From: Shigella phage Sf25
Sequence record: MF327009
Length of the DNA stretch: 64,000 nucleotides
Reading direction: 5' to 3' (one strand)
The notes below the pieces were generated by a model. The model did no database searches. It saw only the letters and a list, made by a program, of their open reading frames with translations, and was not told the origin of the DNA. The position numbers and the translations under genes were made by a program. This document shows positions 1 to 64,000 of the stretch, one piece after another (within the stretch, counting starts at the first letter, position 1; every line of letters starts with the position of its first letter).

Positions 1-332
1 CATGTAGCAACCCATGTATCAAGGCTTGGATCTGAAATTAATGACATAAGTACAGCAGACGGTGCACGACCCTGAATGCTATCCAAAAGTGATTGATACT
101 TCAGGTTATTAGTAAAAATATCTTGCTGATATTGAGGAAGCTTGTTAAATTGTGCAGCATCCATCATCAAGTTTACTTCTTCAGGACGCCAGAAAAATGA
201 CAATTGCTTTTCGGTTAAATCTTCAAAAACTTTATGGCGTTGAATATCATAACGCGCAATACCAAGACCTGAACCGAAGAACATAGGTTCTTTTAAAACA
301 TCAACTGGATTTGTATTAAAAACTGTGCTCAT
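1..332 (-). CDS. nrdB: Ribonucleotide reductase small subunit NrdB, N-terminal fragment (continues beyond window start)
   Basis: Minus-strand ATG at 330-332; hand translation MSTVFNTNPVDVLKEPMFFGSGLGIARYDIQRHKVFE...; lies immediately downstream of nrdA as in T-even phages. Confidence 0.8.
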   Translation of the reverse strand, partial: MSTVFNTNPVDVLKEPMFFGSGLGIARYDIQRHKVFEDLTEKQLSFFWRPEEVNLMMDAAQFNKLPQYQQDIFTNNLKYQSLLDSIQGRAPSAVLMSLISDPSLDTWVAT

Positions 333-383
333 AAATTTTCCGCTTAGTTAATAGATAGTGACTCGTCCGTGAGTCAAATTATA

Positions 384-2897
384 TCATAATTTACAGGATG
401 AACAATCTTCAGCTTTTGGAGTTTCTATTTCATAATCATCAGTACCAGAACCGTCACGGGTATTATGATAATAGAAATTTTTTCCGCCAAAATACCAAAA
501 ATATAAAAGGTCATCAATCATTATTGACATTGGAACCTTTCCTTTTGGAAAAATCTGCGGGTCATAATATGTATTAGCTGAAGCTGATTGACATACCCAT
601 TTCAGCATAATAGCTACTTGCGTAAGATAAGGTTTATTGCCTTTCTTAGCTAATTTCCACGTATAATCATAGAGGTCTATGTTATGCTCAATATTGGGCA
701 CGACTTGATTAAAGGAACCCTCTTTTGATTCTTTAACAGAGACTGGTCCACGTGGAGGCTCGATACCGTTTGTACTGTTAGAAACTTGGGAAGATGACTC
801 ACATGGCATAAGTGCTGATAATGTGCTATTACGGATGCCAAAGAGCTTAAGGTCTTCCCGCAGCGACGACCAGTCACAAACGTATTTTGGAGCTGCGATT
901 TGGTCAATCTTTTTATTGTACCAGTCGATAGGTAATTCGCCTCGAGACCAACGAGTGTCTGAATAATATTCGCAAGGTCCTTTTTCTTTGGCGAGCTTAA
1001 TGGATGCTTTAATGAGTCCATACTGTAATCTCTCAAATAGTTCATGTGTTAAATCGTTAGCATCTTCATAAGAAGCAAAATTACTTGCCAGCCAAGCTGC
1101 ATAGTTAGTAACACCTACACCAAGATTTCGACGCTTTTTAGCTTTTTCTGCTTCAGGAACTGGATATCCTTGGTAATCCAAAAGATTATCAAGAGCACGA
1201 ACTTGGACTTCTGCCAATTCATTAATTTTATCTTGGTCTTGCCAATCAAAGTTATCTAACACAAATGCAGATAACGTACACAATCCAATTTCAGCATCAG
1301 GACTATTCACATCATTTGTTGGAATAGCAATTTCACAGCACAAGTTGCTCTGACGAATAGGTGCCTTTTCACGAATAAACGGAGTATAGTTATTCGTATT
1401 ATCTATGAACTGTACATAAATCCTTGCTGTTCCTGAGCGTTCAGTCATGAGCAATTCAAATAGTTCACGGGCTTTAATACGCTTTTTACGAATATTAGGG
1501 TCTTTTTCTGCTGCTTCGTATAATTCACGGAAACGGTCTTGGTCTTTAAAATAAGAATAATAAAGCTCGCCACCCATTTCATGCGGACTGAACAAAGTAA
1601 TGTAATCGTTCTTTCCGAATCGTTCCATCATCAAATCATTCAGCTGAACACCATAATCCATATGACGGATACGGTTTTCTTCTACACCTTTGTTATTTTT
1701 CAAAACGAGAAGATTTTCAACTTCCAAATGCCAAATAGGATAATAAGCAGTAGCAGCGCCGCCACGAATTCCACCCTGTGAGCATGATTTAACAGCAGTC
1801 TGAAAATGTTTCCAAAAAGGAATAACACCAGTATGGCGTACTTCACCTGTGCCAATCTTAGAACCTTCGGCACGAATCATACCAACGTTAATACCAATTC
1901 CATAATCCATATGACGGATACGGTTTTCTTCTACACCTTTGTTATTTTTCAAAACGAGAAGATTTTCAACTTCCAAATGCCAAATAGGATAATAAGCAGT
2001 AGCAGCGCCGCCACGAATTCCACCCTGTGAGCATGATTTAACAGCAGTCTGAAAATGTTTCCAAAAAGGAATAACACCAGTATGGCGTACTTCACCTGTG
2101 CCAATCTTAGAACCTTCGGCACGAATCATACCAACGTTAATACCAATTCCAGCGCGTTTGGAGATATATTCAACAATTGAAGCAGAAGCCTTATTGATAG
2201 ACTTTAATGAATCACCTGCTTCAATAACAACGCATGAACTAAACTGCCGAGTTGGAGTACGGCAACCAGCCATAATAGGAGTTGGCAGTGAAATCTGTCG
2301 AGTAGATACTGCTTCATAAAAACGGATAACGTGTTTTAATCTATCAACAGGTTCATCTTGATGCAATGCCATTCCAATAGTCATAAATGCAAACTGTGGA
2401 GTTTCATAAATTTGACCAGTGGTTTTATCTTTAACTAGATATTTTTCTTTTAATTGCATCGCCCCGGAATAAGTAAATTCCATATCCCGCTCGTGCTTAA
2501 TTTTTGATTCTAAAAATGTAATTTCTTCGGCAGAATATTTTGACAACAATTCAGGGTCATATTTACCTTCATTTACACAGTAAGAAATGTGGTCAATAAA
2601 TGAACGTGGTTCATACTGCCCATAAACATGCTTACGAAGAGCGAACATTAAACAGCGTGCAGCTACATATTGATAATCAGGCTCTTCAACTGAAATAGAA
2701 TTCGCAGCAGCCTTAATTACAATGGTTTGAATGTCATCAGTTGTCATTCCATCACGGAGATATGATTTAATATTTTCATATAATTCATAAGGATCTACAG
2801 ATGTTCCTTCAGCTGCCCAAGATAAAACTTTAATAATTTTTTGCGGGTCAAAGCTCTGAGAAACACCACTACTTTTGATAACATTAATTAATTGCAT
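384..2897 (-). CDS. nrdA: Aerobic ribonucleotide reductase large subunit NrdA; 837 aa including an 83-aa in-frame internal tandem duplication
   Basis: ORF track 837 aa; class I RNR alpha sequence; peptide GIGINVGMIRAEGSKIGTGEVRHTGVIPFWKHF...ENRIRHMDY occurs twice in tandem. Confidence 0.9.
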   Translation of the reverse strand: MQLINVIKSSGVSQSFDPQKIIKVLSWAAEGTSVDPYELYENIKSYLRDGMTTDDIQTIVIKAAANSISVEEPDYQYVAARCLMFALRKHVYGQYEPRSFIDHISYCVNEGKYDPELLSKYSAEEITFLESKIKHERDMEFTYSGAMQLKEKYLVKDKTTGQIYETPQFAFMTIGMALHQDEPVDRLKHVIRFYEAVSTRQISLPTPIMAGCRTPTRQFSSCVVIEAGDSLKSINKASASIVEYISKRAGIGINVGMIRAEGSKIGTGEVRHTGVIPFWKHFQTAVKSCSQGGIRGGAATAYYPIWHLEVENLLVLKNNKGVEENRIRHMDYGIGINVGMIRAEGSKIGTGEVRHTGVIPFWKHFQTAVKSCSQGGIRGGAATAYYPIWHLEVENLLVLKNNKGVEENRIRHMDYGVQLNDLMMERFGKNDYITLFSPHEMGGELYYSYFKDQDRFRELYEAAEKDPNIRKKRIKARELFELLMTERSGTARIYVQFIDNTNNYTPFIREKAPIRQSNLCCEIAIPTNDVNSPDAEIGLCTLSAFVLDNFDWQDQDKINELAEVQVRALDNLLDYQGYPVPEAEKAKKRRNLGVGVTNYAAWLASNFASYEDANDLTHELFERLQYGLIKASIKLAKEKGPCEYYSDTRWSRGELPIDWYNKKIDQIAAPKYVCDWSSLREDLKLFGIRNSTLSALMPCESSSQVSNSTNGIEPPRGPVSVKESKEGSFNQVVPNIEHNIDLYDYTWKLAKKGNKPYLTQVAIMLKWVCQSASANTYYDPQIFPKGKVPMSIMIDDLLYFWYFGGKNFYYHNTRDGSGTDDYEIETPKAEDCSSCKL
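1651..2148. repeat. Exact direct tandem duplication, 2 x 249 bp, inside nrdA (boundaries ambiguous by about 3 nt)
   Basis: Sequence beginning cataatccatatgacggatacggttttcttc recurs at 1652 and 1901 with no mismatch seen by eye. Confidence 0.9.
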
Positions 2898-2915
2898 AAG
2901 TCCTCAACTTGAAAA

Positions 2916-3271
2916 TCGTCTTTAAACAATCGGTTAACTATATGAGCTATTATATCACCATGACACGGCTTTGGTTTACATGTGCATCCTAGCCTCATTC
3001 CACGTAAAGGCTCTAAATGTGCTTTAGTTATTTCTCCGGATTTAATTCGACGTATAAAATCTTTTTTGAATAATTCAATGGCAGCCTCCCGGCTCGTCTT
3101 TAAACAATCGGTTAACTATATGAGCTATTATATCACCATGACACGGCTTTGGTTTACATGTGCATCCTAGCCTCATTCCACGTAAAGGCTCTAAATGTGC
3201 TTTAGTTATTTCTCCGGATTTAATTCGACGTATAAAATCTTTTTTGAATAATTCAATGGCAGCCTCCCGGC
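2916..3271. repeat. Exact direct tandem duplication, 2 x 178 bp, spanning the 3' end of a small ORF just upstream of the nrdA start
   Basis: cgtctttaaacaatcggttaactatatgagc... recurs at 2917 and 3095. Confidence 0.9.
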
Positions 3272-3392
3272 TGCCAGCATCTTTACCGACGTAATTTCCC
3301 CAAAATGTACCACGGTGAATATTAACATCAAAGTCGGATTTATATTTATTCACTACCCGGCATAGACGGCCCGCGCGGTTGTAGGTGTTCAT
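3075..3392 (-). CDS. Hypothetical protein (Cys/His-containing); C-terminus altered by the 178-bp duplication
   Basis: ORF track 105 aa; in the duplicated copy the frame ends ...[11 protein letters not shown], while a single-copy reading would give ...RLFKDDFQVEDLCN overlapping the nrdA ATG. Confidence 0.5.
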
Positions 3393-6441: not shown

Positions 6442-6887
6442 TACTTTTTGAAAGTTTTTCGCAAAAGTTCAATGATTTCATCTACATTGTTTTCGTCAAC
6501 AATGCAGTGAATTTTTGTTACGCCAGAAACCTTGTCTATGACTTCATCTACATTGTTTTCGTCAACAATGCAGTGAATTTTTGTTACGCCAGAAACCTTG
6601 TCTTTGACTTCATCTTCTTCAGAAGTCGGTTCTTTATACTCACGAAAACAATGAAATTCATCTTCGCAAATTTCTAAAAGTCTATCTTTGAGGTAAAAAT
6701 GCTTTCCATTTGCGCATTCAATGTGTTTTACTGCTTTATATCCATTAGCGACGGAAACTTCTTTAACTTCAAACCATCCGCCATTATCTCGAATAGCTTT
6801 AACGATTGATGAATTAGAACGTGGGCTATAATTAATAAATGTATCAATAAGTCTTGGAACAAGTTCATACTTTTTGCCAATATACAT
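6441..6887 (-). CDS. Hypothetical protein carrying an in-frame 22-aa tandem repeat
   Basis: ORF track 148 aa; DKVSGVTKIHCIVDENNVDE repeated. Confidence 0.55.
   Translation of the reverse strand: MYIGKKYELVPRLIDTFINYSPRSNSSIVKAIRDNGGWFEVKEVSVANGYKAVKHIECANGKHFYLKDRLLEICEDEFHCFREYKEPTSEEDEVKDKVSGVTKIHCIVDENNVDEVIDKVSGVTKIHCIVDENNVDEIIELLRKTFKK
6477..6608. repeat. Near-exact direct tandem duplication, 2 x 66 bp
   Basis: ttcatctacattgttttcgtcaacaatgcagtgaatttttgttacgccagaaaccttgtct occurs at 6477 and 6543. Confidence 0.85.
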
Positions 6888-8212: not shown

Positions 8213-8310
8213 TTTTATTTCCTTTTTAATTTAATTAACAGTTGGTGCTATGACGATGTATGACCTCATAGCTGGTCAGTGAGATAATTATAATCTATTT
8301 ATAATAAGCA
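8213..8310 (-). promoter_or_regulatory. Gene 32 5' control region: A/U-rich leader (candidate autoregulatory operator) plus overlapping late (TATAAATA, 8296-8303) and MotA-box-like middle promoter elements
   Basis: Minus strand reads TTGCTTATTATAAATAGATTATAAT ... AATTAAATTAAAAAGGAAATAAAAATG. Confidence 0.5.
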
Positions 8311-8311
8311 A

Positions 8312-9136
8312 TTAATACTTGCAAGATTTCACAGTTTCAATAAAAACTTTTTTAGCTTCCTGTGAATCAATATTTAAAATTTTTCTATAAGCCTTTAACT
8401 TTATAGAATAATTATTCCAAACTAAATTATCAGTTTGTTGATCATGTTTATCAATTATATTTAAAAACGAATCAAGCAAGATAAACGTCTCAAACGAAAT
8501 TATGTTCGATTGCAGAAGTTTAAAAATATAACTTGACTGAACTTTTGGATTATACTCAAAAATTTCTTTAAAAGCAGAAACTTCAACTTTTTTACTAAAA
8601 TAATAAATGTTGCGAATATCTTCTTCAAACTTAAATTTAATTTGCTTTAAGCGTCCGATATATTCACGATAAAACACAAGTGCATCAGCGTCAGAGATGT
8701 CACCAATCCAAGCATCTTGGTTAGCAACCAAATTGCTTATAAAGATTAAAGCAAGTTCCTTTAATTTATATTTTTCTGATAACTTCTGGAAAAAATACTT
8801 ATCCCTTCGATTAGTTTTTTCACAACGAACAACAGAAGGACGTAAAAGATTTTCGTCGATAGCTTCTGACTGAATTTTTTCAATTATACCCGAAGGAATA
8901 AATTTAGCAAATTGAGTTTCAGGAATAGAATTTTCTTCTAAGAACGCTGTTGTAGCTTCAAGATAACTCATTCCAAACTCTTCTACCATTTTTTCAATAA
9001 TAAATCCATTTTCTTGGCGGTCAAGAAGCTTTGCTATTTCATCCTTTTCTTTCTTAATTGAAAGTTCTTTTTCTGAAAGACCGGTCTCATCGACCGGACG
9101 AATATCATTTAGAGAAAACTGTGTCATAAAGTTCAA
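8312..9136 (-). CDS. Apparent in-frame fusion ORF: acidic N-terminal part (gp33-like late transcription factor) joined to basic C-terminal part (gp59-like helicase loader)
   Basis: 274 aa; junction near 8806-8812 (...RCEKTN/RRDKYFFQ...); only one ORF between dsbA and gene 32 where T4 has two genes. Confidence 0.55.
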   Translation of the reverse strand: MNFMTQFSLNDIRPVDETGLSEKELSIKKEKDEIAKLLDRQENGFIIEKMVEEFGMSYLEATTAFLEENSIPETQFAKFIPSGIIEKIQSEAIDENLLRPSVVRCEKTNRRDKYFFQKLSEKYKLKELALIFISNLVANQDAWIGDISDADALVFYREYIGRLKQIKFKFEEDIRNIYYFSKKVEVSAFKEIFEYNPKVQSSYIFKLLQSNIISFETFILLDSFLNIIDKHDQQTDNLVWNNYSIKLKAYRKILNIDSQEAKKVFIETVKSCKY

Positions 9137-16134: not shown

Positions 16135-19100
16135 ATGGCTACTTTAAAACAAATACAATTTAAAAGAAGCAAAACTGCAGGTCAACGTCCTGCTGCTTCA
16201 GTATTAGCCGAAGGTGAATTGGCTATAAACTTAAAAGACCGTACTCTTTTTACTAAAGATGACTCGGGAAATATTATTGATTTAAGCATTTCTGCCGGTG
16301 GTAACATTAGTGGAAATATCACTCAAAATGGTGATTATTTACAAAACGGCACGTATAATCTTAATGGAAATCAGTTTGTTTATGCAGGAAAGTATATTGA
16401 ATTCTTGCCAAAAACTGCTGGAAATGGTGCTTGGGCAAATCAGCACACAAATAAAGCTCCAATTTTCACCGATTTGAGTTCAACTACTTCAACTTCTGAA
16501 TATCATCCGCTAATTAAACAACGTTATAAAGATGGAACGTTTTCATTAGGGACTTTAGTTTCTGAAGGCTCAATGAAGATACACTATATCGATGAAACTG
16601 GCACTTCAAAATATTGGACTTTCCGACGTGATGGTGGTTTTGTTGTTGATAGTGGTAGTTTAACTGTTACTGCTGGAAACATATCTGCTTCAGGCAATAT
16701 TAATTCGGCATCAGGGGTTGTTTCAGCTCCTCAAATTAATACAAAAACCATTGTTTTAGATACAAAAGCATTTGGACAATATGATTCGCAGTCATTAGTT
16801 CAGTATGTTTATCCTGGCACTGGCGAAACAAACGGTATAAACTATCTTCGTAAAGTTCGCGCAAAATCAGGTGGTACAATTTATCATGAAATAGCTTCAG
16901 CTCAAAGTGGAAAAAGCGATGAAATTTCGTGGTGGACTGGAAATACAGCCGTTAATAAACAAATGGGTCTTCGTAATGATGGTGCAATGGTATTACGTCG
17001 TTCACTTGCTATTGGCACAATTACTACAGATGAAAACGTAAATAACTATGGATCTGCTGGAGCAATGGGAGAAAAATACATTGTTCTTGGAGATGCGTCA
17101 ACTGGACTAGCTTATAAAAAGACAGGAGTTTATGACTTAGTTGGTAGTGGTTTATCTGTTGCTTCTATCACTCCCGACAGTTTTCGTAGTACCCGTAAAG
17201 CAATTTTTGGACGTTCTGAAGACCAAGGCGGTACATGGCTTCTTCCTGGTCAAAACGCTGCTCTTCTTTCAGTTCGTACAGATATTGATCAAAATAATAA
17301 CGGTGATGGTCAAACTCATATTGGATATAATAGTAACAGCAAGTTTTATCATTATTTTAGAGGCAGAGGCCGAATGGCTGTTGGAATGGCTGAAGGTCTT
17401 ATTGTTGAGCCTGGAATTTTAGATATTAAAACTGGTTCAAATACTGTTTCTATTAGAGCTGATGGCGGAATTTCATCTACTCAGCGTCTTTCATTGCAGA
17501 ATGGTATATTTTTATCTTCTGACGGAAATAACAACGGTATATCGTTTAAAGCTTCTAGCAGTATAGATGGAACTAAAACTCTTAATTGGGATGCTGGTAC
17601 TCGTGCAGGTCAAAACAAAAATACAGTAATTTTAAAAGCATGGGGAAATTCATTTAATACAAGTGGTGGAACTGATAGACATACTGTATTTGAAGTTTCT
17701 GATTCGCAAGGATACTACTTTTATGCTCAACGTACTACCCCTGCATCCGGTCAAACAGTAGGTCCTATTAATTTTAAATTTAATGGTACTGTAGAAACCG
17801 GTCATATCAATGGATTAGGTAATATTACTTTATCTGGGGCAGTTATAGCAGATTCTGCTAATATTAAAGGACCGCTAAAAATATCTAATGCTAATACAGC
17901 TGATGCTTTTAGAATATGGAACGCTGAATATGGAGCCATTTTCCGTCGTTCAGAAACATCATTGCATATTATTCCTACACTTAAAGATGCAGGGGAAAAT
18001 GGTGGAATAAGTAATCTTCGCCCATTAAGTATTGATCTTTCAAACGGATTTGTGCAAATGCATCATTCTCTTTCTGTGGGGAATACAGTAAGAACGAATG
18101 GATTGTTTGCTGTGGATACTTCAGCTGCTCTTGTTGCAATTAACAGATGTTCCTATTGTGAAACAAAGATACGTTCAAGGGAATAGCACCTATTCATTAG
18201 GTACTTTAATTAATGGTGGTGATTTCCGTTTACATTACCATGAAGGCGGTGACAGTTCTTCAACAGGTGCAGTTATAAAAGATATTTCCTGGGAATTTAA
18301 ACGTAATGGTGATTTCTATTCGCCAGGTCGTTTACGTACAGGAAATATCTATATTGGAACTGATGGTAATATCACGGGTGGTTCTGGTAACTTTGCTAAC
18401 TTGAATACAACTTTAAACCGTAAAGTTAATTCTGGTTTTATTACTTATGGAGCAACTGCAGGTTGGTACAAGTTTGCAACAGTAACAATGCCTCAAGCTA
18501 CATCAACCGTTTCAATTACAGTCACTGGCGGAAATGGATTTAATTCTGGATCATTTAATCAGTGTGCAATTTCTGAAATTGTTCTTCGTACAGGAAACAA
18601 TAATCCTCTGGTGATACATATGACATTTATGTTAATATGGGAACATATGCTAATCAGTTGATATTTAACTATAGTTCTGTTGATAATGCCACAGTTCAAA
18701 TTATTGGCGCATTCAGTTCAGCTCAAAATCCTGTTGATGCATTGCCAGAAACATATGTTAAAGGTCAGGTAGCAGATGTATTGACTAACTTAGTTGATTC
18801 TGGAAAAACGAAGCGTTTTGTTGCTGAATCTGAAATAGCTATTAATAATCAAACTGGATTACGTATTACGAGTAATGGTGATAAATCTGGTTCAAATTCA
18901 GTATTATTCAGAAATGATGGATCAGCGTTTTATATTCTTTTAACAGATAAAAACGCAGCAGATGGAAATACGACTGCCACAGAAGGAGATTGGAATGGTA
19001 AACGTCCTTTCCAAATTAATATGACTTCTGGTGAAGTAACATTCGGAAATAATATTAATATTTCTGGAAACGGAAGCATTACTTGGACAAAAGCCGGAGC

Positions 19101-19800: not shown

Positions 19801-20498
19801 ATGGCAATTGTAGGTGTTCCTGGCTGGATTGGTGAATCTGCCGTGAATGAAACAGGACAGCGTTGGATGGATGCTGCAATGAGAGCAGTCCGTGTTTCAG
19901 TTCCCGGTTGGATGAGCTCAATGGCCGGACAATCTAAAGAAGTATATTATAGCATTGGTGCTAGTAATTCTTATAATAAAGATACATTAATAAACTGAAT
20001 GCATACGTGACACTTAATATCAATTCAGGCGTGCATGTTTGGGGCCGTGGCGGGAATGGCGGAAATAACTCTGCCGGTGGAGCAGGAGGAACTGCAATAA
20101 ATAATGGAATTGGAACTAGATTGCGTATTAACAACAATGGTGTTATCGCAGGAGGCGGTGGCGGCGGTGGAGGCGGATATTATTCTCCTTTTTCACAAAT
20201 GAAATTGACTTTTGGCGGTGGCGGCGGTCGTCCATTTGGTGCTGCTGGCGGGTCTGCTAATATGGAACAGGGCGCTACTGCTGGTACTATTTCTGCACCT
20301 GGTAAAGGGTCTGTCAATGGTATCTATAATGGCGGGAATGGCGGTGATGCTGGTGCCGCAGGTGGTAAATGTAATATTCGTGGGCAAGGATCAGAATATA
20401 ACGGCGGTGCGGCCGGTAAAGCTGTTACTGGTAATGCTCCAACTTGGACTAAGGTTGGTACAATATATGGCCCTCTGATATTCTATTTGGTGTTCTAG
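19801..20498 (+). pseudogene. 38: Receptor-recognising adhesin gp38 (T2-type, glycine-rich motifs), split into two reading frames
   Basis: N-terminal 65-aa ORF (MAIVGVPGWIG...) ends at a stop at 19996-19998; the glycine-rich part (GGGGGGGGYY...) follows in another frame from 20007. Confidence 0.55.
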
Positions 20499-25575: not shown

Positions 25576-25679
25576 TAGTAGATAACAACACAAATGTTAA
25601 ATATGCACACATACCCTGGGCTAAAGCTTGAAATTATTACGATAGAACTGCATCACATGTTCGTTATGGAAATTACTCA

Positions 25680-26529: not shown

Positions 26530-26718
26530 TTATTTTACACCATTCCAAATTGTTTCAACTACAGATTTTAAGCCATTTTGATGAATGTCCATTCCGACTA
26601 CCGCCATCAAATAGATTCCAACTACGTTTAACATATCAATCATTAAAACGATTGGGAATATACTCAAAACTACTAGTATTATAACTACATTCCATATAGC
26701 TTTAATAATCTTTTTCAT
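26530..26718 (-). CDS. Small membrane protein
   Basis: Start MKKIIKAIWNVVIILVVLSIFPIVL with GGAGG RBS; 62 aa. Confidence 0.5.
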   Translation of the reverse strand: MKKIIKAIWNVVIILVVLSIFPIVLMIDMLNVVGIYLMAVVGMDIHQNGLKSVVETIWNGVK

Positions 26719-29330: not shown

Positions 29331-31757
29331 TTAGGCCGCAAGGGCCTTCATAGTTTTAGCGATTTGAGAAACTTCATCATCACTTAAAGAGTTGCGATAA
29401 CCGATGAAGTCGGAAACAATACGGAATTTCTTGGTAAACTCAGCAACCATTTTATCACTGTTTTTTGAAGCATTATTTGATAATACATCAAAAAGATTAG
29501 TTACTGTCCAGATGTCATGACCGATGGTACCTTTTCCACCGTTGAAATATACGCCCCGCAATGAACTAACTATATTAGCGAGTCGTGTATATTCTTCAGA
29601 AACTTCATCTGTACTGAAGTACTTCATCATAAAATCTAGTTCAGGATACTTGATAATTTTATCAATATATCGTTGAGCTGAACTTGAATAACCTACGTAC
29701 TTATCATAATCTACATCATCAAAAGCATCTACATATAAATCACGCAGAGTTTCAAAAATACATTGGCACTGACCGAGTTCTTTTACCTTTTTCTGCAAAA
29801 GCGGACGAATAACATAAAATTCATTAATGCCAATAAGATTAGCCATACGAATCAAAATATTCATAGATGGATGACAAAGAGATGTAGTACCATCCATAGA
29901 GAAAATATCAGAACGATGCATATACGCTACATAACCAGTAATTTCATCTGCTTCTGATGTGAGCGTAAACAGTTCCTCTTTTTCCCATCGCCCATCTTTA
30001 ATTTCAAACTTAAATGCTGTAGCAGCTTTAGGACGAGGAGCTTTACTTTTAACTACCTTTGGAATATAGCTTTTAACTAAAGCTTCAATTTCTGACAAAT
30101 AATGAATGTTAACTTCATCACTTTCAAACATCGCCATAATATCAGGAAGTAAATCAATCTGCGATTCTACTTCTGGATTAATAAACAGAAGACGCTCATT
30201 GTGATGAATATTCAAAGTGTTATTAAATTCACTATCATCTAACGCATGTGCTAATCCACGAACAATATTAACACGATTTTTAATATTATCAATAACGATA
30301 TTAATTTTTGTTGTATTAATACCAAACAGACGATAACTTGATGCAACGGCTGAAGTTTCATGACTTTGCTTAATGCGTTTCAGTCGAGGGTCAAGATTTA
30401 CTTCATACACAACTCCTGCATTGCATAACTTACTGTCAGGTTCAAACATGCTCTGCATCTTTTTATATGACAGATTTTTAGTCGTGAATTTGACTGAATT
30501 ACTAATCATATAATCTCGAGCAGAATATCCCATCTTCATCAATTCACGATATGTGTGACGAGGAGATGTAGATTCTTTAAATCGTTTTACATCTTCATTG
30601 AATGCCTTCTCACTAAGCTCTTTAACACGCTCAATAATATTTTTACGAGTACGATCATCTAGTGAAAGAGCTTCGCGTGATGGAGCAATATCAAGTGAAC
30701 CCATTGGAAACTTAATGTAATTCACTTCATTGCGAATGCTTAGCCAGTTACGGTCTCTAATAACACCATCGATAGGATAAACAATACCGCCATAGATAGC
30801 ATATAATCCACCACGATCAGGCCAGTATCTTTCTGGATTTACACCATAATAATCATCAAAATCAGGAAAATAATCAATTTCAATAATATTTTTACGAGTA
30901 CGATCATCTAGTGAAAGAGCTTCGCGTGATGGAGCAATATCAAGTGAACCCATTGGAAACTTAATGTAATTCACTTCATTGCGAATGCTTAGCCAGTTAC
31001 GGTCTCTAATAACACCATCGATAGGATAAACAATACCGCCATAGATAGCATATAATCCACCACGATCAGGCCAGTATCTTTCTGGATTTACACCATAATA
31101 ATCATCAAAATCAGGAAAATAATCAATTTCGCGGTCAAGACCATTAATGATAGCCAAATCTTTGAACGGTCGCATGATATAAGAAACTTCATAAGCAAAG
31201 TTTCTAAAGTCTTTTTCTTCAACTGGAACTACGATTTCAATACCAGTTTTATCATCTGGACCCATTTCTTTTACGAATGTAGGTTTAATCTGTGGGCCAT
31301 CACCATCCATGTAAGCTACATAACCACGAATTTCACCTTTATGATACGAAGTAATACTAAACGTATCAGTATAACTAAACGGAGATTTAGAACCTAAACC
31401 AAATCCGCCAATAAAGTCATTAGATTCAGCCTTAGATGAACTGAAGTATGAATTATACAGCCCAGGAGAATTATCATCACCCTGAATATCAAAATCACTC
31501 ATACCCGGACCAAAATCTCGACAAACAAATCGTGGATCTAATCGTCCTGGAACTTGAATGATAAATTTTTCAGGATTTCCATTAAGTGCATGAGCATCAA
31601 TCATGTTAGTAATCAATTCACGGACTACTGCGCGAATCTTGTTTGTATACAAATCAGATGACAGAATTTTAAATACTTTAGGATTTGCTGCGATGCTAAA
31701 TGCTTTTGATTTAGAACCATTGCCAAGAATTGTTTCTTTTTCAGTGGTGATAATCAT
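29331..31757 (-). CDS. rIIA: rIIA protein; 808 aa including an 83-aa in-frame tandem duplication
   Basis: N-terminal GHKL-like ATPase sequence; peptide [25 protein letters not shown]...RTRKNII occurs twice. Confidence 0.9.
30632..31129. repeat. Exact direct tandem duplication, 2 x 249 bp, inside rIIA
   Basis: caataatatttttacgagtacgatcatctagtgaaagagc... begins at 30632 and 30881. Confidence 0.9.
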
Positions 31758-40536: not shown

Positions 40537-40844
40537 CGGAAAGTCCCTGCAATTGGAATACTAACAATACGCCCAGTATCTAAAATTCGCTGATATAATC
40601 TTTGTGTGTCTACGTCAGGCTTAACATGTTTAACTTCTATTTTATTAAACCAAAACTTGCGTGGAGTCTCAACTAGTCTTGGAATTCCCATACCTAAAGC
40701 TAGTTTATATTGGTCTTTGAGAGTAGTAAAAACTCTATCAGCAATCTCTCTTTCAAAAAACACAGCAGGACGATGTTCATCAAGTGGAACTGGCGCCGTA
40801 AATCCGTCTTTGTCTCGGTAAACTATCGCATATACATAAACCAT
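40533..40844 (-). CDS. Hypothetical protein
   Basis: ORF track 103 aa; ATGA-type overlap with dda. Confidence 0.5.
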   Translation of the reverse strand: MVYVYAIVYRDKDGFTAPVPLDEHRPAVFFEREIADRVFTTLKDQYKLALGMGIPRLVETPRKFWFNKIEVKHVKPDVDTQRLYQRILDTGRIVSIPIAGTFR

Positions 40845-40845
40845 A

Positions 40846-41592: not shown

Positions 41593-41630
41593 ATTTTTCT
41601 CACATCTTACGGACGATTTAATACTTTATT

Positions 41631-41660
41631 ACTATAACATTTTTACTTCAGATTGTAAAC
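41631..41660 (-). promoter_or_regulatory. Putative early promoter (GTTTAC-N18-TATAGT)
   Basis: Reverse complement GTTTACAATCTGAAGTAAAAATGTTATAGT. Confidence 0.45.
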
Positions 41661-41716
41661 AACTTTATGCAAAATGCTTTAAAACTTTCATGGTATAATG
41701 AATCTAAGTCCTTCCA

Positions 41717-42163
41717 TTATAGATTAAATCCTTCAAAATCAAGAGTATAGATAGTATATGTTGAATACTTTTTGTACTCATATCTATCTGCAATTCTAAA
41801 TACACTTCCAGCTGGTATCATTACTTCTTGTTCATCTGAAACTAATTCCATATTACGATAACGATGACTATCCGGAAACTTAAAGTTTGGATTGTATTCT
41901 TTACAGCGTAGAGCTTTTATAGCATACTCCTGGAAATTGAATACCATAGGAGCTTTGAATTCAAAAATAACTTGTGTGTTATACTCTAAAATTTCATTTA
42001 ACCAAGTATGGTCATCTGGTTTATTAGTAATACAATGAATTAAAAGTTCAATTTCAGATAAATTAAACCCTTCAGAAAGTAATTCTTCACGAATAGAAGC
42101 ACGCACCGATGCATCCATTGATTTTATTTTAAAATCTTTTAGTTGCATTACTGAGTATTTCAT
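41717..42163 (-). CDS. modA: ADP-ribosyltransferase paralog (ModA-like), shorter than expected
   Basis: 148 aa; catalytic E-x-E region SDEQEVMIPAG paralogous to the upstream ORF; start overlaps the modB stop (ATGA). Confidence 0.5.
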   Translation of the reverse strand: MKYSVMQLKDFKIKSMDASVRASIREELLSEGFNLSEIELLIHCITNKPDDHTWLNEILEYNTQVIFEFKAPMVFNFQEYAIKALRCKEYNPNFKFPDSHRYRNMELVSDEQEVMIPAGSVFRIADRYEYKKYSTYTIYTLDFEGFNL

Positions 42164-42809: not shown

Positions 42810-42839
42810 ATCATATCATCGTTAGAAAGGAAAGTAAAC
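42810..42839 (-). promoter_or_regulatory. Putative early promoter for modB (GTTTAC-N18-TATGAT); part of it is re-created in the adjacent duplication
   Basis: Reverse complement GTTTACTTTCCTTTCTAACGATGATATGAT, then GGAGG RBS. Confidence 0.5.
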
Positions 42840-43228
42840 AACTTTTTGAATTATTTTGCCCAGGGAGCCCAAGGCGGAGGGTCAAGATGGTATGAAGCTA
42901 GTTCTTCTAGAAGAGCATCTGGGGCTTCAATTCCATAATTCTGTAATACTATACGGTACTCTTTCTTATAATCACTAGAATCATTCTGGTTATTCGTAGA
43001 ATGATTATCTTCTAACATTCATATCATCGTTAGAAAGGAAAGTAAACAACTTTTTGAATTATTTTGCCCAGGGAGCCCAAGGCGGAGGGTCAAGATGGTA
43101 TGAAGCTAGTTCTTCTAGAAGAGCATCTGGGGCTTCAATTCCATAATTCTGTAATACTATACGGTACTCTTTCTTATAATCACTAGAATCATTCTGGTTA
43201 TTCGTAGAATGATTATCTTCTAACATCT
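42813..43228. repeat. Exact direct tandem duplication, 2 x 208 bp, covering a promoter/intergenic region and most of a small ORF
   Basis: atatcatcgttagaaaggaaagtaaacaactttttgaattattttgcccagggagccc... begins at 42813 and 43021. Confidence 0.9.
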
Positions 43229-45530: not shown

Positions 45531-46293
45531 TTAATAGCCTCGATCTTGACGAGCGAAGTTTTCAGCATTTTTCAGATAATAAAGTTTAAAGATTTCCTCA
45601 GCTGACATTCCAAGAGCAATGAATTTATTCATGAAAAAGTGAAATTGGTCAATCAGTTCAAATTTAATTTCAAGCTGATCTTCAGGAGATAAGTCTTGAA
45701 TTTTCTTGGATTGCATTTCAGAATAACGTTTCTTCCAAGGTTTCCATACAGCAGAAGCTTCTTTTTCACCATTACTCATACCACCAAGAGAAGTATATAG
45801 CTCGCGAGTTTCATCTGCGATATAATCGTCTTGGTTTCGCAACCAAGCAAGAACTTCTCCTGCAGTTTCAAGTGAATCAGGATGACGATTTGTTTCTGGT
45901 TTATCATTAGCCAAACGAATCTGTAAATGCCGCTGCATGTCAAATTTTCTTGGATTGCATTTCAGAATAACGTTTCTTCCAAGGTTTCCATACAGCAGAA
46001 GCTTCTTTTTCACCATTACTCATACCACCAAGAGAAGTATATAGCTCGCGAGTTTCATCTGCGATATAATCGTCTTGGTTTCGCAACCAAGCAAGAACTT
46101 CTCCTGCAGTTTCAAGTGAATCAGGATGACGATTTGTTTCTGGTTTATCATTAGCCAAACGAATCTGTAAATGCCGCTGCATGTCAAGCATAACCTGCAA
46201 TGGGTCAATACTGTGCATAATATACTCAGCATATGCACGATTTGCTTTATCAACACCTTCGATCAAATGAGCACATTCATTAAAGTGAGCCAT
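45531..46293 (-). pseudogene. 56: dCTPase/dUTPase gp56 (MazG-like) disrupted by a frameshifting 244-bp tandem duplication
   Basis: N-terminal frame MAHFNECAHLIEGVDK... (AAGGAAA RBS) terminates at the repeat junction near 45940; C-terminal part ...ALGMSAEEIFKLYYLKNAENFARQDRGY is in another frame. Confidence 0.6.
45700..46187. repeat. Exact direct tandem duplication, 2 x 244 bp (not a multiple of 3), inside gene 56
   Basis: attttcttggattgcatttcagaataacgtttcttcc... begins at 45700 and 45944. Confidence 0.9.
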
Positions 46294-50160: not shown

Positions 50161-50460
50161 TTATTTTAAAACTTCTGTGTAATCACATGTTACAAACTGT
50201 TTCTCTAGCTTGACGATTTTACGAAAGTATCTTTTACATTGACGAATCTGTCGCTTAGTAGGGCGCACAGCAAACTTAATAAATTCCACTCGACCAAATG
50301 GAGGGCTTTCTTCTGATGGAATATCTAACACCAATTCCCATGTATCTGCAATAAGTGCTTTGAATTGAGTATTTTTCCTAACGTTATACGGAGTAGGTTT
50401 AAATAAAACAATATGCATATTATCCTCGGCAATCCACTTCACATACTTTCTTGTCATCAA
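50161..50460 (-). CDS. Hypothetical basic protein
   Basis: ORF track 99 aa. Confidence 0.5.
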   Translation of the reverse strand: MMTRKYVKWIAEDNMHIVLFKPTPYNVRKNTQFKALIADTWELVLDIPSEESPPFGRVEFIKFAVRPTKRQIRQCKRYFRKIVKLEKQFVTCDYTEVLK

Positions 50461-50602
50461 TGAAAGCTTTAACTAATGCTTTATTAACTTCAGCATACTG
50501 AGTAGTAGCCCATTGAACGTCATCTTTCATCATTGTGGTTTCTTTAGTAAACATGCTTTCATTCTTAAACCACCCCATAAAAACTACCTTTACCAATTCC
50601 AT
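50420..50602 (-). CDS. Hypothetical protein
   Basis: ORF track 60 aa; GAGGAG RBS. Confidence 0.45.
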   Translation of the reverse strand: MELVKVVFMGWFKNESMFTKETTMMKDDVQWATTQYAEVNKALVKAFIDDKKVCEVDCRG

Positions 50603-54536: not shown

Positions 54537-55381
54537 TCACCGTTATAATCTTTTTTCACAATATGAGTTTCGCCAGTATTCCACCAATGATCAACCAAGT
54601 AAAAATGACGAGAATATACATGAAGACTTCCAACATTCCATATAATAGAACCTGCTTTATACTGACGAGTTGAATCGCCGGCATTCAAATCAGATACTAA
54701 TTTATCTAATACGTATTTTTGCCATGCATAATCATTACGGAATCCGAAGACCACGTCATTTGAGCGCATGCTTACTACTGCATTGACTTTCTTATCACGA
54801 ATCAGGTACTGTACTGTATTAGTACACATGAAATCTGACATACCATCTTTATTGTAGTCAAATTGCATGGATGGACGAGTCATGCTTACTACTGCATTGA
54901 CTTTCTTATCACGAATCAGGTACTGTACTGTATTAGTACACATGAAATCTGACATACCATCTTTATTGTAGTCAAATTGCATGGATGGACGAGTATAAAT
55001 CATGATACCACGTCGAGAATCAGGATTTTGACCAAGTTCAGCTAAACACATATCATACTGGGCATAGTTATCTTCTGACCAAATAGCCCAACCATAATTC
55101 GAGTTAATTTCGCCTTTAGAAGATGCTACCTGCTGCCAAATCTTTGGTGTTTCGCCTGGAATATCTTTGACAAACAGACTTTGAGACTTGTACCATTCAA
55201 GTTCACGCTGAATGTATTCATCATTAAGAGCGCCAAAAATAAAGGGTTCATCTGCTACAAATGATGCGCCAATAATTTCAATAGTTTTAACACCGGTTTT
55301 ATCAACTACGAAATCTTTTTCTTTTAATGCAAGCCCCAAATGAAGACGGATTTCTTCAACTGTCATAAAGTCACTAATCAT
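54527..55381 (-). CDS. 42: dCMP hydroxymethylase gp42; 284 aa including a 38-aa in-frame tandem duplication
   Basis: ThyA-like fold sequence; peptide TRPSMQFDYNKDGMSDFMCTNTVQYLIRDKKVNAVVSM occurs twice. Confidence 0.9.
   Translation of the reverse strand: MISDFMTVEEIRLHLGLALKEKDFVVDKTGVKTIEIIGASFVADEPFIFGALNDEYIQRELEWYKSQSLFVKDIPGETPKIWQQVASSKGEINSNYGWAIWSEDNYAQYDMCLAELGQNPDSRRGIMIYTRPSMQFDYNKDGMSDFMCTNTVQYLIRDKKVNAVVSMTRPSMQFDYNKDGMSDFMCTNTVQYLIRDKKVNAVVSMRSNDVVFGFRNDYAWQKYVLDKLVSDLNAGDSTRQYKAGSIIWNVGSLHVYSRHFYLVDHWWNTGETHIVKKDYNGEWK
54767..54994. repeat. Exact direct tandem duplication, 2 x 114 bp, inside gene 42
   Basis: catgcttactactgcattgactttcttatcacgaatcagg... begins at 54767 and 54881. 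Confidence 0.9.
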
Positions 55382-56601: not shown

Positions 56602-59445
56602 TCAGCCAAACAGGAAGTCTAACGAAGCTTTTTCTTCATAGTCCATACCAGCCGATTCACACATGCCTGCAAGCGGTTTAACAAACGATTTTTGGAACAA
56701 AGTTGAGTAGTCAATCCAAGACAGTACGTCAGAACGAATTTCTTTTGGAAGTTCTGTACCCGACGGCCAAGCAATGCATTTGTCACCAAATGGATTTCCT
56801 TCACGCAATGGAAGAACCATTACTTTATTTCCATCCAAAATTGGAGCTACACCTAAACCGCTAACAGCTCGACGATAAGTTAGCACACCACGAATATGGA
56901 ACGGACATTTAAATCCTGGCCAACCTTTATCATCATATTTCGCTATATCGTTCGCAGTTTTTACTTCAGCAATAACTTTATAGTCAAGTTGACGATATTC
57001 TTTCTCGAAGTTCTTGTAATATTCTTGGACAGACTCTTCACCTTCCTGAAGAATACGACGAATACTTTCTTCGAGAGCTTCTTGGACCGCTTTAGGCGTT
57101 GAACTCTGCTGAGTTTCCATACCCATGATTTTTAGATGCGGTTCAGCAAATCGCTTATCTTCCATATCATATACGTTCAGAGCATAACGCTTTTTCGCTT
57201 TCCAAAATCCGCCAACGCCCTTTGAACCAAGTGGAGGGCAAGAAATAGCTTCACGGTCCATATGCATCAGATGCTCGCGGTTATTCATATAATCACATAA
57301 CTCACGATATGCAACATCAATCATAGGTTCCATCTTTTTCTTACCGAACTGATTCATGAATTCAACTAAATCGTTCTGCTCTTTGAATCGGTCAAGACCA
57401 ACTTTTTCAATAACTTTATCTACACAAACATATACCGAATCAGTATCACCTGCTGCAATGAAATCTTCGCCATTAGTTCCGCATACTTTATTCAGATATT
57501 CATTAATTTTACGAGCAATCCACTGAATACCAACTTGGCCGAAAATTGTGATAGCAGTAGCATTTCGCAAATCATAGTAACGGAAATGAATATTACCAAG
57601 AGCACCATAAAGACTGTTAATAAGAATTTTACGGTTCAGCTGATTTGTGTTAGCAAGTGTAGCTGCTTTTTCACACTCTTCGATCAAACTATTAAGAACA
57701 GATTCGGTGTAATTCGATAGTTCATTTAAGAAATCATCACTGAACTTAACATATCGTTCAACTTCTGGTTTAGTTGAGCAAGACCCTGCGCCTTTCATAA
57801 TAATCTTTTTAATAGCTTCGGCATTCATTTCTTCAGCGAACATTTTCTTTTTCCAATCTTTACGCTGGAAAAATACTTTAGCGATTTCCTTTGGAATGAT
57901 ACCTTCTTGATGCTTATCATACATCCATCCATTCGGAGAACAAGAATATTCATCACTCGGTTTAGGAGCTGTTCCTGCGATATATTCATGAATTGGATGA
58001 ACTTTAAACTGACCACGAATAGTCTCAGGACTAATGTTAACCTGACGAATAATGCTCGGATACAGAGACGTCAAGTCAAAACTCATAATATATCGACGAG
58101 CAATTGGTTTAGGTTCAAACACAAATGCACCCGGAAAACTCTGTTTAACGTGCGAACCTTGTTGAGGAATAACCTTATGTTCACCTTTCAATGAGTTAAA
58201 AATAATAGCATCCCAAGTTTTAATAGGACTCATTACACCGGAAAAAGGCATTTTAGCGTAATAAGACATACTTAAAACTAGATCGATAAACCCGCGAATT
58301 TTATCAATTGCTTGAACTGATTCTACGTCAATGATGTTATAACTAATGTATCGTTGATGATTAGTCTCACGAAGTTTATTAATAGGACCGTCGTATGGTA
58401 ATTTACCTTTTTTGGTTTCATGTTGAGCAACTGATTCCAAAGAGAATGACGGCAAATTAGTAAAAGCGAATTTCTTGTACAAATCTAAATAATCAAGAAT
58501 AGATACGCCATCAATAGAATAAATTTCTTTGCTGCCGTACATATTTTGAATTAGTTTGGATTTTACCCGACCGATTGGAGAGAAACGTTTCATACTGCGT
58601 TCGCCTAGAATCATTTTAACACGATTCATGATATATGGAACGTCAAACCCCTCAATATTCCAACCGGTAAAAATAGCAGGTCGTTTCTGTTCCCAGAGAT
58701 TGATATATTCCATGAGCATATCACGCTCATTATCGAATGGCATATAAATTACTCGGTCAAGAATTTCTTGAGGAACTTCATCACCACCTTCACAGTCAAG
58801 CTTAGCAGCTAACTTTGCATCCCATTTTGATACTGAACCGTACATTGAATTCAAAAGGTCGAAAACATAAAAACGATCGTCAATTGAATCGTAATGAGTG
58901 ATAGCATCAATTTCATATTCAGCTTTCATTGGGTCAGGAAATTTATCACCAGTAACCTCAATGTCACAGTTAGCTACACGAACACCGTACATTGAATTCA
59001 AAAGGTCGAAAACATAAAAACGATCGTCAATTGAATCGTAATGAGTGATAGCATCAATTTCATATTCAGCTTTCATTGGGTCAGGAAATTTATCACCAGT
59101 AACCTCAATGTCACAGTTAGCTACACGAACAAATTTTCGGTCATAAACAATTTCTGAACCATATGTATCACTGATATAAGCGAGTTTAAAATCGTTCATA
59201 CCGAGAGCTTCGAGACCGATGTCTTCCATTCGCTTCATCCAATCTCGAGCATCTTTCATTGATGGAAATTTTTGAGGAGCGCAGTTTTTACCATAGATGT
59301 CTTTGTACTTTGACTCTTCCTTACAATGCCTAAACATAGTTGGAAGATATTCTACTTCACGAGTACGTTCCTTTCCATTTTCATCAATATAACGTTCAAC
59401 AATATTATTTCCGACTGTTTCAATAGAGATATAAAATTCTTTCAT
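56602..59445 (-). CDS. 43: DNA polymerase gp43 (family B); 947 aa including a 49-aa in-frame tandem duplication in the N-terminal/exonuclease region
   Basis: Pol B motifs (DxxSLYPS-like FDLTSLYPSII, YGDTDS-like GDTDSVY); peptide VRVANCDIEVTGDKFPDPMKAEYEIDAITHYDSIDDRFYVFDLLNSMYG occurs twice. Confidence 0.92.
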   Translation of the reverse strand: MKEFYISIETVGNNIVERYIDENGKERTREVEYLPTMFRHCKEESKYKDIYGKNCAPQKFPSMKDARDWMKRMEDIGLEALGMNDFKLAYISDTYGSEIVYDRKFVRVANCDIEVTGDKFPDPMKAEYEIDAITHYDSIDDRFYVFDLLNSMYGVRVANCDIEVTGDKFPDPMKAEYEIDAITHYDSIDDRFYVFDLLNSMYGSVSKWDAKLAAKLDCEGGDEVPQEILDRVIYMPFDNERDMLMEYINLWEQKRPAIFTGWNIEGFDVPYIMNRVKMILGERSMKRFSPIGRVKSKLIQNMYGSKEIYSIDGVSILDYLDLYKKFAFTNLPSFSLESVAQHETKKGKLPYDGPINKLRETNHQRYISYNIIDVESVQAIDKIRGFIDLVLSMSYYAKMPFSGVMSPIKTWDAIIFNSLKGEHKVIPQQGSHVKQSFPGAFVFEPKPIARRYIMSFDLTSLYPSIIRQVNISPETIRGQFKVHPIHEYIAGTAPKPSDEYSCSPNGWMYDKHQEGIIPKEIAKVFFQRKDWKKKMFAEEMNAEAIKKIIMKGAGSCSTKPEVERYVKFSDDFLNELSNYTESVLNSLIEECEKAATLANTNQLNRKILINSLYGALGNIHFRYYDLRNATAITIFGQVGIQWIARKINEYLNKVCGTNGEDFIAAGDTDSVYVCVDKVIEKVGLDRFKEQNDLVEFMNQFGKKKMEPMIDVAYRELCDYMNNREHLMHMDREAISCPPLGSKGVGGFWKAKKRYALNVYDMEDKRFAEPHLKIMGMETQQSSTPKAVQEALEESIRRILQEGEESVQEYYKNFEKEYRQLDYKVIAEVKTANDIAKYDDKGWPGFKCPFHIRGVLTYRRAVSGLGVAPILDGNKVMVLPLREGNPFGDKCIAWPSGTELPKEIRSDVLSWIDYSTLFQKSFVKPLAGMCESAGMDYEEKASLDFLFG
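58837..59130. repeat. Exact direct tandem duplication, 2 x 147 bp, inside gene 43
   Basis: accgtacattgaattcaaaaggtcgaaaacataaaaacgatcg... begins at 58837 and 58984. Confidence 0.9.
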
Positions 59446-59523: not shown

Positions 59524-59787
59524 TTAAATTAGTACTATTTGTCGGTGAAAAATTGTCATTCCATCTGCATTAATTGACTTAACGACTGCAGTAAAGTGTT
59601 TTTGTTCTGGATGAATTAATTTTTGAAATTCTACCTGAAATTTTAGTTGAAGGTTTTCTGGTAAATCAAAAAGTGTTTCTGTTGCAGAAAGATTATATTT
59701 TTCTTTAAGAGACGTCATGTATTCTTGTGGAGTTATAGCAGTCATATTAATTACCAATCGTATATTTAGGAACGAGTTTCCATTCAT
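59524..59787 (-). CDS. Hypothetical protein
   Basis: ORF track 87 aa; overlaps regA 3' end. Confidence 0.4.
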   Translation of the reverse strand: MNGNSFLNIRLVINMTAITPQEYMTSLKEKYNLSATETLFDLPENLQLKFQVEFQKLIHPEQKHFTAVVKSINADGMTIFHRQIVLI

Positions 59788-60116: not shown

Positions 60117-60541
60117 TTACCATTCCAATGCTAGTTTTTTGAGTTGTTTCTGTTCTTTTACGTTCTTAGTCACTTCTTTCAAAAAATCATATCTTCGACC
60201 AGTTTTGCCCATTTACCATATCTTTTACCACGAGGAACTGCAGCCATCAGATAATTAAAATGAGCTTCATCACTTAAGCCTGATCCAATTAAATTCATAG
60301 CATATACAGCTGGCATGCACTCTGGAAATTGTGATAATGCATTTTCAACCATGAATTTTGAATAATCTTTTTGAGCAATAGAGCATTTAGTTTTATTATT
60401 AATAGCTCCAATTATTTCAAAAAATTCATTTTCAGCTTTTTCTTTAAAAGAATCAGCAGCAGATTGGACAGCTGTCCAATCTTTTGAATACCAAGCAACT
60501 TGATGCTCGTTTAATTGAATATCATCTTCAAATAAGCTCAT
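60117..60541 (-). pseudogene. 62: Clamp loader small subunit gp62, disrupted by an internal frameshifting lesion
   Basis: N-terminal frame [22 protein letters not shown]... stops at 60179 (...KLVEDMIF*); downstream, out of frame, [23 protein letters not shown] ends at the regA start. Confidence 0.55.
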
Positions 60542-62685: not shown

Positions 62686-62694
62686 AATACACCT

Positions 62695-62883
62695 TTAGTC
62701 ATAATAATCAGTAACAGTCCAAGCTTCATTTCTATTGGACATTATTTTTGTATATTCTGCTTTAAATGCATTCCTAAGCATAGATTCAGTAACTATATGC
62801 TCTTCATTAGAAAAATTATTTCTCAGAATATATCGTTTTATTTCAGGAAAAGTTAATAGATGCTGTCCAGTTGAATATTCCAT
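62695..62883 (-). CDS. Hypothetical protein
   Basis: ORF track 62 aa. Confidence 0.45.
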   Translation of the reverse strand: MEYSTGQHLLTFPEIKRYILRNNFSNEEHIVTESMLRNAFKAEYTKIMSNRNEAWTVTDYYD

Positions 62884-62938
62884 GTTTTTCCTCCATAGAG
62901 ATTATACTCTAATAAATTAAAGCATAATCTCTTATAAA

Positions 62939-64000
62939 TTAAACCATTACAGTAAATCGACCAACTTTCTTCATTTGAAGATGCTGACCATATTCTTGCG
63001 GGTCATGGTCTTTATGCGAAATTATAAAAACATTAGTGTTTTTCATTGAATTTATAATATTAGCTACACCTTTAATACCTTCGGCATCAAATGACCCATC
63101 AAACACTTCATCGAGTATTAACGTACTAATACTAACACCAGATACAATAGAAGCAATATCACGCCAAGTAAATAAAAGAGCAATATCAATTCGTGCTTTT
63201 TCACCTTCACTAAATGAAGCATAACTAAAATCTTCACGACCACGGGATTTAATTGTCTCATTAAATTCTTCATCTAATGTAAACACATAATCCGCTTCCA
63301 TTATTTTAAGATAATGGTTAATCTGCTTATTAAATAATGGAACGTACTTTTTAATAATAGCACCTTTAATACCAGAATCTTTGAGCATATCAGTCAAAAT
63401 TCCTCGGTGGTATTTTTCCATTACTAAATTAGTTTTTGTCTTAACAATTTTATCAAGTTCTTCTTGAAGCAGTGCTATTTCATCAGCATGGTCAATAAAC
63501 TCAGAAGATGCTTTTTCTATAGCTGCTTTAACTTTTTTAGCTTTATCTACCGTCGTGATTAGAGATTGCTTTTTATTGCGAATATCATTTGCCAACGACT
63601 GCTGAGTTTTAATATTATCTCGGTATTCATCAACAAGAACTTTTAAATTATCACGGTGTGTTGAAAGCTGTTCAAACGAATGCGTACATTCAGAAACTTT
63701 ATCTTTAATTTTAGAAACAACTTTATCACCGGAACTTAATTGTGACAAACAGGTTGGACATAATCCACCTTCGTGATACATATTAATGACTTTATTATAC
63801 GAGTCAATTTTTGATTTAATTAAAACTGCTTCTTGACCGATTTTATTAAATGCATCAGTCGGGTCTTCATCCAAAACAATATTAACTAATCTTTCGTTAG
63901 CTTCTTCTATTTCCGATTTTAGCGTTCTAGCTTCTTTTGCCAAATCATCATACATATTTTGTAGACGTGTAAGGTTGTCACCCGTTAATTTTTTCTGGCG
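62939..64000 (-). CDS. 46: Recombination endonuclease subunit gp46 (SbcC/Rad50-like), C-terminal part; gene continues beyond window end
   Basis: ABC-ATPase signature and Walker B region (LILDEVFDGSFD); coiled-coil with CxxC zinc hook (CPTC); reading frame stays open to position 64000. Confidence 0.88.
   Translation of the reverse strand, partial: RQKKLTGDNLTRLQNMYDDLAKEARTLKSEIEEANERLVNIVLDEDPTDAFNKIGQEAVLIKSKIDSYNKVINMYHEGGLCPTCLSQLSSGDKVVSKIKDKVSECTHSFEQLSTHRDNLKVLVDEYRDNIKTQQSLANDIRNKKQSLITTVDKAKKVKAAIEKASSEFIDHADEIALLQEELDKIVKTKTNLVMEKYHRGILTDMLKDSGIKGAIIKKYVPLFNKQINHYLKIMEADYVFTLDEEFNETIKSRGREDFSYASFSEGEKARIDIALLFTWRDIASIVSGVSISTLILDEVFDGSFDAEGIKGVANIINSMKNTNVFIISHKDHDPQEYGQHLQMKKVGRFTVMV

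Follow-up and report, generated by a model that had tools for sequence, protein, structure and literature searches.

As described by Srikant et al. 2022 (eLife 11:e79549, PMC9391042), phage T4 produces amplifications and deletions at microhomologies of 6-10 bp: the selected dmd-tifA locus was amplified, 0.7-6 kb of accessory genes were deleted, and all 62 essential genes were spared (earlier T4 work cited there: Kumagai 1993; Wu 1991). A documented class of assembly error consists of false duplications, and of gaps closed without support, where contigs were joined (Ko et al. 2022, Genome Biol 23:205, PMC9516828). Here we analysed a stretch of 64,000 nucleotides (the window) from Shigella phage Sf25, a Tequatrovirus related to T4, as deposited in GenBank under MF327009.1, and found 17 breakpoints private to Sf25, made up of eight tandem duplications and nine deletions. 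These lesions exist, sit in the deposited record, and are blunt, blind to the reading frame, lethal on paper and reversible in silico to known alleles. They very probably arose as errors when the genome was assembled or finished and do not belong to the phage itself.

The Sf25 lesions resemble the T4 events in form, as head-to-tail repeats and deletions, and in lying in a T-even genome. Unlike those events, they are blunt, have units below 250 bp in exactly two copies, are scattered over 64 kb and strike essential genes, while the dmd-tifA locus of Sf25 (window 50164-50602) is untouched. The resemblance to the cases in PMC9516828 lies in adjacent identical copies that come from assembly, and in joins and gaps that yield false gene gains as well as chimeric and broken genes. 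Those cases concern diploid genomes of large size, with heterozygosity as the main driver, whereas Sf25 is a haploid phage of 168 kb whose copies measure 66-249 bp and directly adjoin each other head to tail, no N-gap remaining in the record.

Lesions in the deposited Sf25 record

Exact-sequence look-up showed that the lengthened NrdA (837 aa), RIIA (808 aa), gp42 (284 aa) and gp43 (947 aa) are identical over their full length to Sf25 proteins in GenBank. The broken gp37, gp38, gp62, ModA and holin, the 33::59 fusion and the split gp56 were also exact deposited Sf25 proteins, and each lesion-bearing protein was found on the Sf25 genome only and on no other contig. The set of lesion-bearing accessions comprises AUV63363.1, AUV63375.1, AUV63381.1, AUV63407.1, AUV63438.1/39.1, AUV63453.1, AUV63457.1 and AUV63460.1, present in GenBank and UniProt and of the 2018 era. 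Because the lengthened and broken proteins match the deposited ones exactly, the window is, as judged from these matches, a faithful copy of a stretch of MF327009.1 and not a simulated sequence. No exact copy of the Sf25-specific proteins was seen in any Logan or ENA assembly, and therefore no public sequencing run appears to exist. The papers citing accession MF327009 were silent on the quality of the record.

Tandem Repeats Finder detected eight head-to-tail duplications in the window, with the sizes listed in an earlier note that had been made from the letters of this DNA alone (66, 114, 147, 178, 208, 244, 249 and 249 bp). That note had called all eight perfect; the exact scan showed that seven are 100% identical across two full copies, and that the 66-bp pair carries one mismatch. 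Its statement that the open reading frames exceed the normal length by exactly the duplicated residues proved right for NrdA, RIIA, gp42 and gp43, with the lengths given in Table 1. None of the eight duplications was present in Sf24, the phage record closest to the window. When one copy was deleted in silico, exact full-length proteins known from other contigs were recovered, namely NrdA of 754 aa (75 contigs), gp43 of 898 aa (64), gp56 of 172 aa (55), NrdA.1 of 95 aa (47) and gp42 of 246 aa (one). RIIA and Frd.2 also returned to normal lengths, but without an exact match in other phages. The duplications show zero age: the copies are identical, and the single-copy form corresponds to known alleles.

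For the deletions, all Sf24 proteins of the region were mapped onto the window, the open reading frames were listed, and short Sf24 blocks missing from the window were tabulated. About 12 such blocks were missing, nine of which are private deletions of 70-173 bp. Together with the duplications they distort the genes listed in Table 1, gene 37 being hit twice. The protein mapping and the reading frames bore out all the fusing or frameshifting lesions that had been named before (33/59, 37 twice, 38, t, 56 and 62), and extended the list by deletions in ac, ndd.2a/ndd.4 and modA and by duplications in nrdA.1 and modA.2.

The junctions were then compared with those of other phages, using 100-mers centred on each junction, a collection of 50,697 phage records (INPHARED-derived, Sf25 itself not included) and a cut-off set above any 50-bp half match. 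None of these records spanned any of the eight duplication junctions, and none matched the six deletion junctions in 59/33, 37 (both), 38, 38/t and 62. The ac, ndd and modA junctions were likewise unseen in other records of the same collection, and the matches of other phages ended at the ac junction. The search was checked with a junction known to exist, that of a duplication in Sf24, and this positive control retrieved exactly the two Sf24 records. Relatives carrying identical duplications, which according to the earlier note would have pointed to natural polymorphism, were thus looked for in 50,697 records and none was found.

Microhomology of 0-3 bp was observed at 16 of the 17 junctions, with a mean of 0.69 bp compared with the 0.75 bp that randomly placed joins would give in DNA of this base composition. 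The lesion sizes were divisible by three in 7 of 17 cases (p = 0.33). Genes 37, 38, 56 and 62 are frameshifted, t has no start, and 33 lacks its C-terminus. By established T4 genetics, together with the set of 62 essential genes mentioned in PMC9391042, genes 33, 37, 38, t, 56 and 62 are essential, and their joint loss is incompatible with plaque formation; yet Sf25 was isolated as a plaque former. The earlier judgement that one viable isolate carrying all the lesions is implausible agrees with these results, as essential genes are destroyed in a plaque-forming isolate, the joins are blunt and the frame is ignored. Its first option, an assembly artefact, is supported by private lesions, by blunt and frame-blind joins, and by single-copy forms that are known intact alleles.

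Table 1 Breakpoints of the window that are private to Sf25 (positions in the window; aa, amino acids)
Locus	Position	Strand	Lesion	Effect on the product	Deposited protein
nrdA	1651..2151	-	perfect 249-bp unit, two copies	in frame, +83 aa (837 vs 754)	AUV63363.1
nrdA.1	2916..3272	-	perfect 178-bp unit, two copies	frameshift	
frd.2	6472..6615	-	66-bp unit, two copies (Tandem Repeats Finder 2.2 copies), one mismatch between copies	in frame, +22 aa	
33::59	8809..8810	-	blunt join, 173 bp missing (last 3 codons of 33, first 52 codons of 59)	in-frame fusion, 271 aa, Sf25 only	AUV63375.1
gene 37, first	18146..18147	+	blunt join, 173 bp missing	frameshift	AUV63381.1 (683 aa)
gene 37, second	18606..18607	+	blunt join, 70 bp missing	original frame regained (173 + 70 = 243)	AUV63383.1 (377 aa)
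gene 38 (T2-type adhesin)	19997..19998	+	blunt join, 103 bp missing	frameshift; 65-aa N-terminal piece	AUV63384.1
38/t	20469..20470	+	blunt join, 72 bp missing (38 end, intergenic region, ATG and first 9 codons of holin gene t)	holin of 198 aa with TTG start, vs 218 aa in all relatives	AUV63386.1
ac	25630..25631	-	blunt join, 134 bp missing	N-terminal 32 codons and upstream sequence lost	
ndd.2a/ndd.4	26624..26625	-	blunt join, 130 bp missing	two genes fused	
rIIA	30631..31130	-	perfect 249-bp unit, two copies	in frame, +83 aa (808 vs 725)	AUV63407.1
modA	41990..41991	-	blunt join, 156 bp missing	in frame, -52 aa (148 vs 200)	AUV63427.1 (only match of the 148-aa ModA)
modA.2	42811..43226	-	perfect 208-bp unit, two copies, spanning the gene	two copies of the small gene	
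gene 56 (dCTPase)	45699..46187	-	perfect 244-bp unit, two copies	frameshift, gene split into two annotated fragments	AUV63439.1 (117 aa), AUV63438.1 (135 aa)
gene 42 (dCMP hydroxymethylase)	54767..54994	-	perfect 114-bp unit, two copies	in frame, +38 aa (284 vs 246)	AUV63453.1
gene 43 (DNA polymerase)	58837..59131	-	perfect 147-bp unit, two copies	in frame, +49 aa (947 vs 898)	AUV63457.1
gene 62 (clamp-loader small subunit)	60190..60191	-	blunt join, 139 bp missing	frameshift, 120 aa vs 187	AUV63460.1 (only match of the 120-aa gp62)

Between the two deletions in gene 37, a block of 460 bp is out of frame, and the gene is thereby read as three open reading frames of 683, 187 and 377 aa. Both missing segments of this gene were present in every relative that shares this type of gene 37 (Sf24, PinkRuby and teqsoen). 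For gp62, the other listed members of the protein cluster were all 187 aa long and lie on hundreds of contigs. The breaks in genes 37 and 38 lie at the edges of hypervariable segments. In teqskov, gene 37 showed 99.7% similarity to the window up to 18146, where the similarity ends, so that the first breakpoint of gene 37 coincides with a natural boundary of the tail-fibre mosaic.

Proposed contig joining and other explanations

The step that joined the contigs is one that we infer. The Sf25 assembly would have been split into numerous contigs, in the window roughly one for every 3.6 kb, and these would have been ordered along a related genome and then concatenated as plain strings. Overlaps of 66-249 bp between contig ends, if left unmerged, would appear as exact tandem duplications, and unfilled gaps of 70-173 bp, if closed directly, would appear as deletions. 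Contig concatenation is favoured because exact two-copy repeats of variable length occur together with short, clean omissions, and because the spacing of these lesions is irregular, averaging about 3.6 kb. Two other technical factors were considered and rejected. A read-length ceiling, suggested by two units of 249 bp and none longer (read length minus one), is contradicted by a 265-bp duplication in Sf24, which leaves no firm upper bound. Coverage dropout in AT-rich DNA as the cause of the deletions found no clear bias, with a GC content of 28.6-41.0% in the missing segments and 35.0% in the window.

The phages Sf25, Sf24 and Sf20 reportedly come from the same study, which is said to be Doore et al. 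2018 (J Virol 92:e02117-17), with a follow-up in 2019. Perfect duplications were scanned in two of these siblings, namely in Sf24 and, for the Krischvirus Sf20, in its first 50 kb, and in two controls, TH09 and NIC06P2. Sf24 (NC_042078.1 92090-92619) contains a perfect 265-bp unit in two copies, which the annotation treats as two paralogues, gp121 and gp122; its counterpart in the window (27977-28240) is single copy, and the duplication junction is private to Sf24. In the scanned part of Sf20 (MF327006.1), a perfect and private 74-bp unit occurs twice at 49625-49773, within a gene for an Alt-like ADP-ribosyltransferase. Like those of Sf25, the sibling duplications are 100% identical head-to-tail copies with 0-1 bp of microhomology, found in their own record only. 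They differ in frequency, with one per genome or per 50 kb in the siblings and eight per 64 kb in Sf25, and Sf24, unlike Sf25, is in RefSeq with its copies annotated as paralogous genes. No perfect duplication was found in the 334 kb of TH09 and NIC06P2, which are unrelated, complete Tequatrovirus genomes from other groups, compared with seven in the 64 kb of the window (p = 2.8e-6). The recurrence in siblings of the same study and the rarity elsewhere form a pipeline signature. According to the genome table in PMC13015707, Sf21-Sf24 stand under RefSeq NC_ accessions, and Sf25 and Sf20 under GenBank accessions only; the tRNA counts given there are nine for Sf25 and ten for Sf24.

Four other origins of the lesions were weighed against assembly error. 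Structural variants planted in a real genome, by simulation or editing, would fit lesion sizes that look drawn from a range of about 60-250 bp, blunt joins and random placement. Both lesion classes, however, sit in Sf25 proteins of GenBank and UniProt, which refutes this origin for all lesions that can be checked through annotated proteins; the engineered or simulated sequence proposed in the earlier note fell on the same exact matches, and we give this origin practically no credence. Just as little credence goes to the view that the lesions are natural Tequatrovirus polymorphisms by which Sf25 differs from Sf24. Five other differences from Sf24 are indeed of a natural kind, and three of their junctions, when searched, were common to hundreds of phages, yet the same search, which recovered these natural junctions and the positive control, found the 17 junctions in no other record. 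That the record is a chimera from a joint culture of two related phages, with contigs breaking wherever the strains diverge and blocks alternating between an Sf24-like and a more distant strain, is unlikely, though it is the least improbable of the four. The wide spread of block divergence from Sf24 agrees with it (0.08-0.8% in four blocks and 1.4-11% in the rest), as do the four breakpoints in genes 37/38 that fall exactly at sharp divergence steps and the teqskov similarity that stops exactly at the first of them. Outside genes 37/38, however, the steps at breakpoints were no larger than at random positions, several changes of divergence lie hundreds of bases away from a breakpoint, and the near-Sf24 blocks are 99.2-99.9% and not 100% identical, as natural mosaicism predicts. 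Mixed strains were therefore rejected as a general cause, the excess of steps arising only through the 37/38 breakpoints (p = 0.009 with them, p = 0.36 without). A chimera could explain the breaks in the tail-fibre genes, and a strain mixture or a reference-guided step may have contributed locally in genes 37/38.

Some points qualify the reading of joined contigs. The overlaps vary in length and so do not represent k-mer overlaps left by a de Bruijn assembler; MF327009.1 is listed as a 168,573-bp genome in the table of PMC13015707; of the eight duplications, five keep the reading frame (binomial p about 0.09), which hints faintly at selection; and a 12-bp imperfect direct repeat, ATGATTTCATCT / TTGACTTCATCT, borders the frd.2 unit, an arrangement that resembles real slippage. 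The in-frame duplications and the repeats flanking frd.2 are also what would be expected if the lesions were real, the result of many recent illegitimate-recombination events in a helper-maintained defective population or a hyper-recombinogenic lineage, and T4 readily makes tandem amplifications and deletions (PMC9391042). Such an origin is nevertheless highly improbable: at least six essential functions would be lost at once, the junctions lack the 6-10 bp microhomology of the T4 events, genuine T4 deletions spared all 62 essential genes, no relative has any of the junctions, and a helper genome would have shown up in the assembly. For a defective genome kept by complementation, which had also been proposed, no support was found. 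Assembly or finishing error thus accounts best for the 17 breakpoints, with frd.2 as the case that fits it least.

The frd.2 duplication may be a genuine slippage event, the sole such case among the 17, because a random join would rarely land on such a 12-bp imperfect repeat. It is in frame and lies in a non-essential gene, and the mismatch between its copies is located 5 bp from the junction. The only hits to this junction were matches 65 bp long that reached 12 bp into the imperfect repeat without spanning the junction itself. A simple single crossover does not yield the hybrid repeat at the junction (ATGAC...), and this repeat occurred in no other phage record. That a subset of the lesions is real, be it the frd.2 slippage or, at the extreme, also the in-frame duplications in nrdA, rIIA, 42 and 43, is given very little weight; the extreme version would mean that a T-even phage tolerates internal repeats of 38-83 residues in core enzymes of replication and nucleotide metabolism.

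Natural differences between the window and Sf24

The window is collinear with Sf24 63,017-128,233, with a mosaic identity of 88.8-99.9%. In window 31131-41990, no phage record exceeded about 95% identity, and by this divergence the segment is a distinct natural lineage and not a copy of a known genome. The five differences of a natural kind comprise the lack of segG, a different 43.1 gene and three differences whose junctions are common to hundreds of T-even phages: at 25676 the stp-ndd arrangement stands where Sf24 has gp113, at about 44620 mrh.1 is shorter, and at 45497 gp155/gp156 are missing between soc and 56. Judged by this wide sharing, these three are natural polymorphisms, and they were excluded from the lesion count.

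At window 8275-8311, about 35 bp replace segG, the homing-endonuclease gene that lies between 32 and 59 in Sf24. This absence was read as ordinary presence/absence of a mobile gene from the type of the gene, with no junction search. A different 43.1 gene with 47% identity to Sf24 lies at window 59524-59787. Two further genes of the window are clearly diverged. A goF-like gene (34735-35145) showed 77% protein identity to Sf24 and formed a singleton cluster in a collection of 15 billion proteins, and a gp136-like gene (36735-37220) showed 51% identity to Sf24.

Consequences for sequence databases

The lesions are almost certainly not a real biological feature and have no biological significance. 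Their value lies in database hygiene, as 64 kb of MF327009.1 contain no fewer than 17 structural errors. The faulty Sf25 proteins have spread into NCBI nr and UniProt/UniRef, among them the 837-aa NrdA, the 947-aa DNA polymerase, the 271-aa 33::59 fusion, the 120-aa clamp-loader subunit, the fragmented gp37 and gp38, and the holin with a TTG start. RefSeq NC_042078.1 (Sf24) probably carries one such error, at gp121/gp122. Affected records should be corrected or excluded in tail-fibre and host-range comparisons, pangenomes, protein-length statistics and training data. The case also indicates that reading the raw sequence can flag assembly errors correctly.

T4-like fragments of NrdA, RIIA, Dda, gp43, gp59 and holin were also found deposited under Enterococcus faecalis, Pseudomonas aeruginosa, Klebsiella pneumoniae and Bacillus cereus, on very short contigs. 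These fragments in bacterial assemblies look like T-even phage contamination of sequencing projects.

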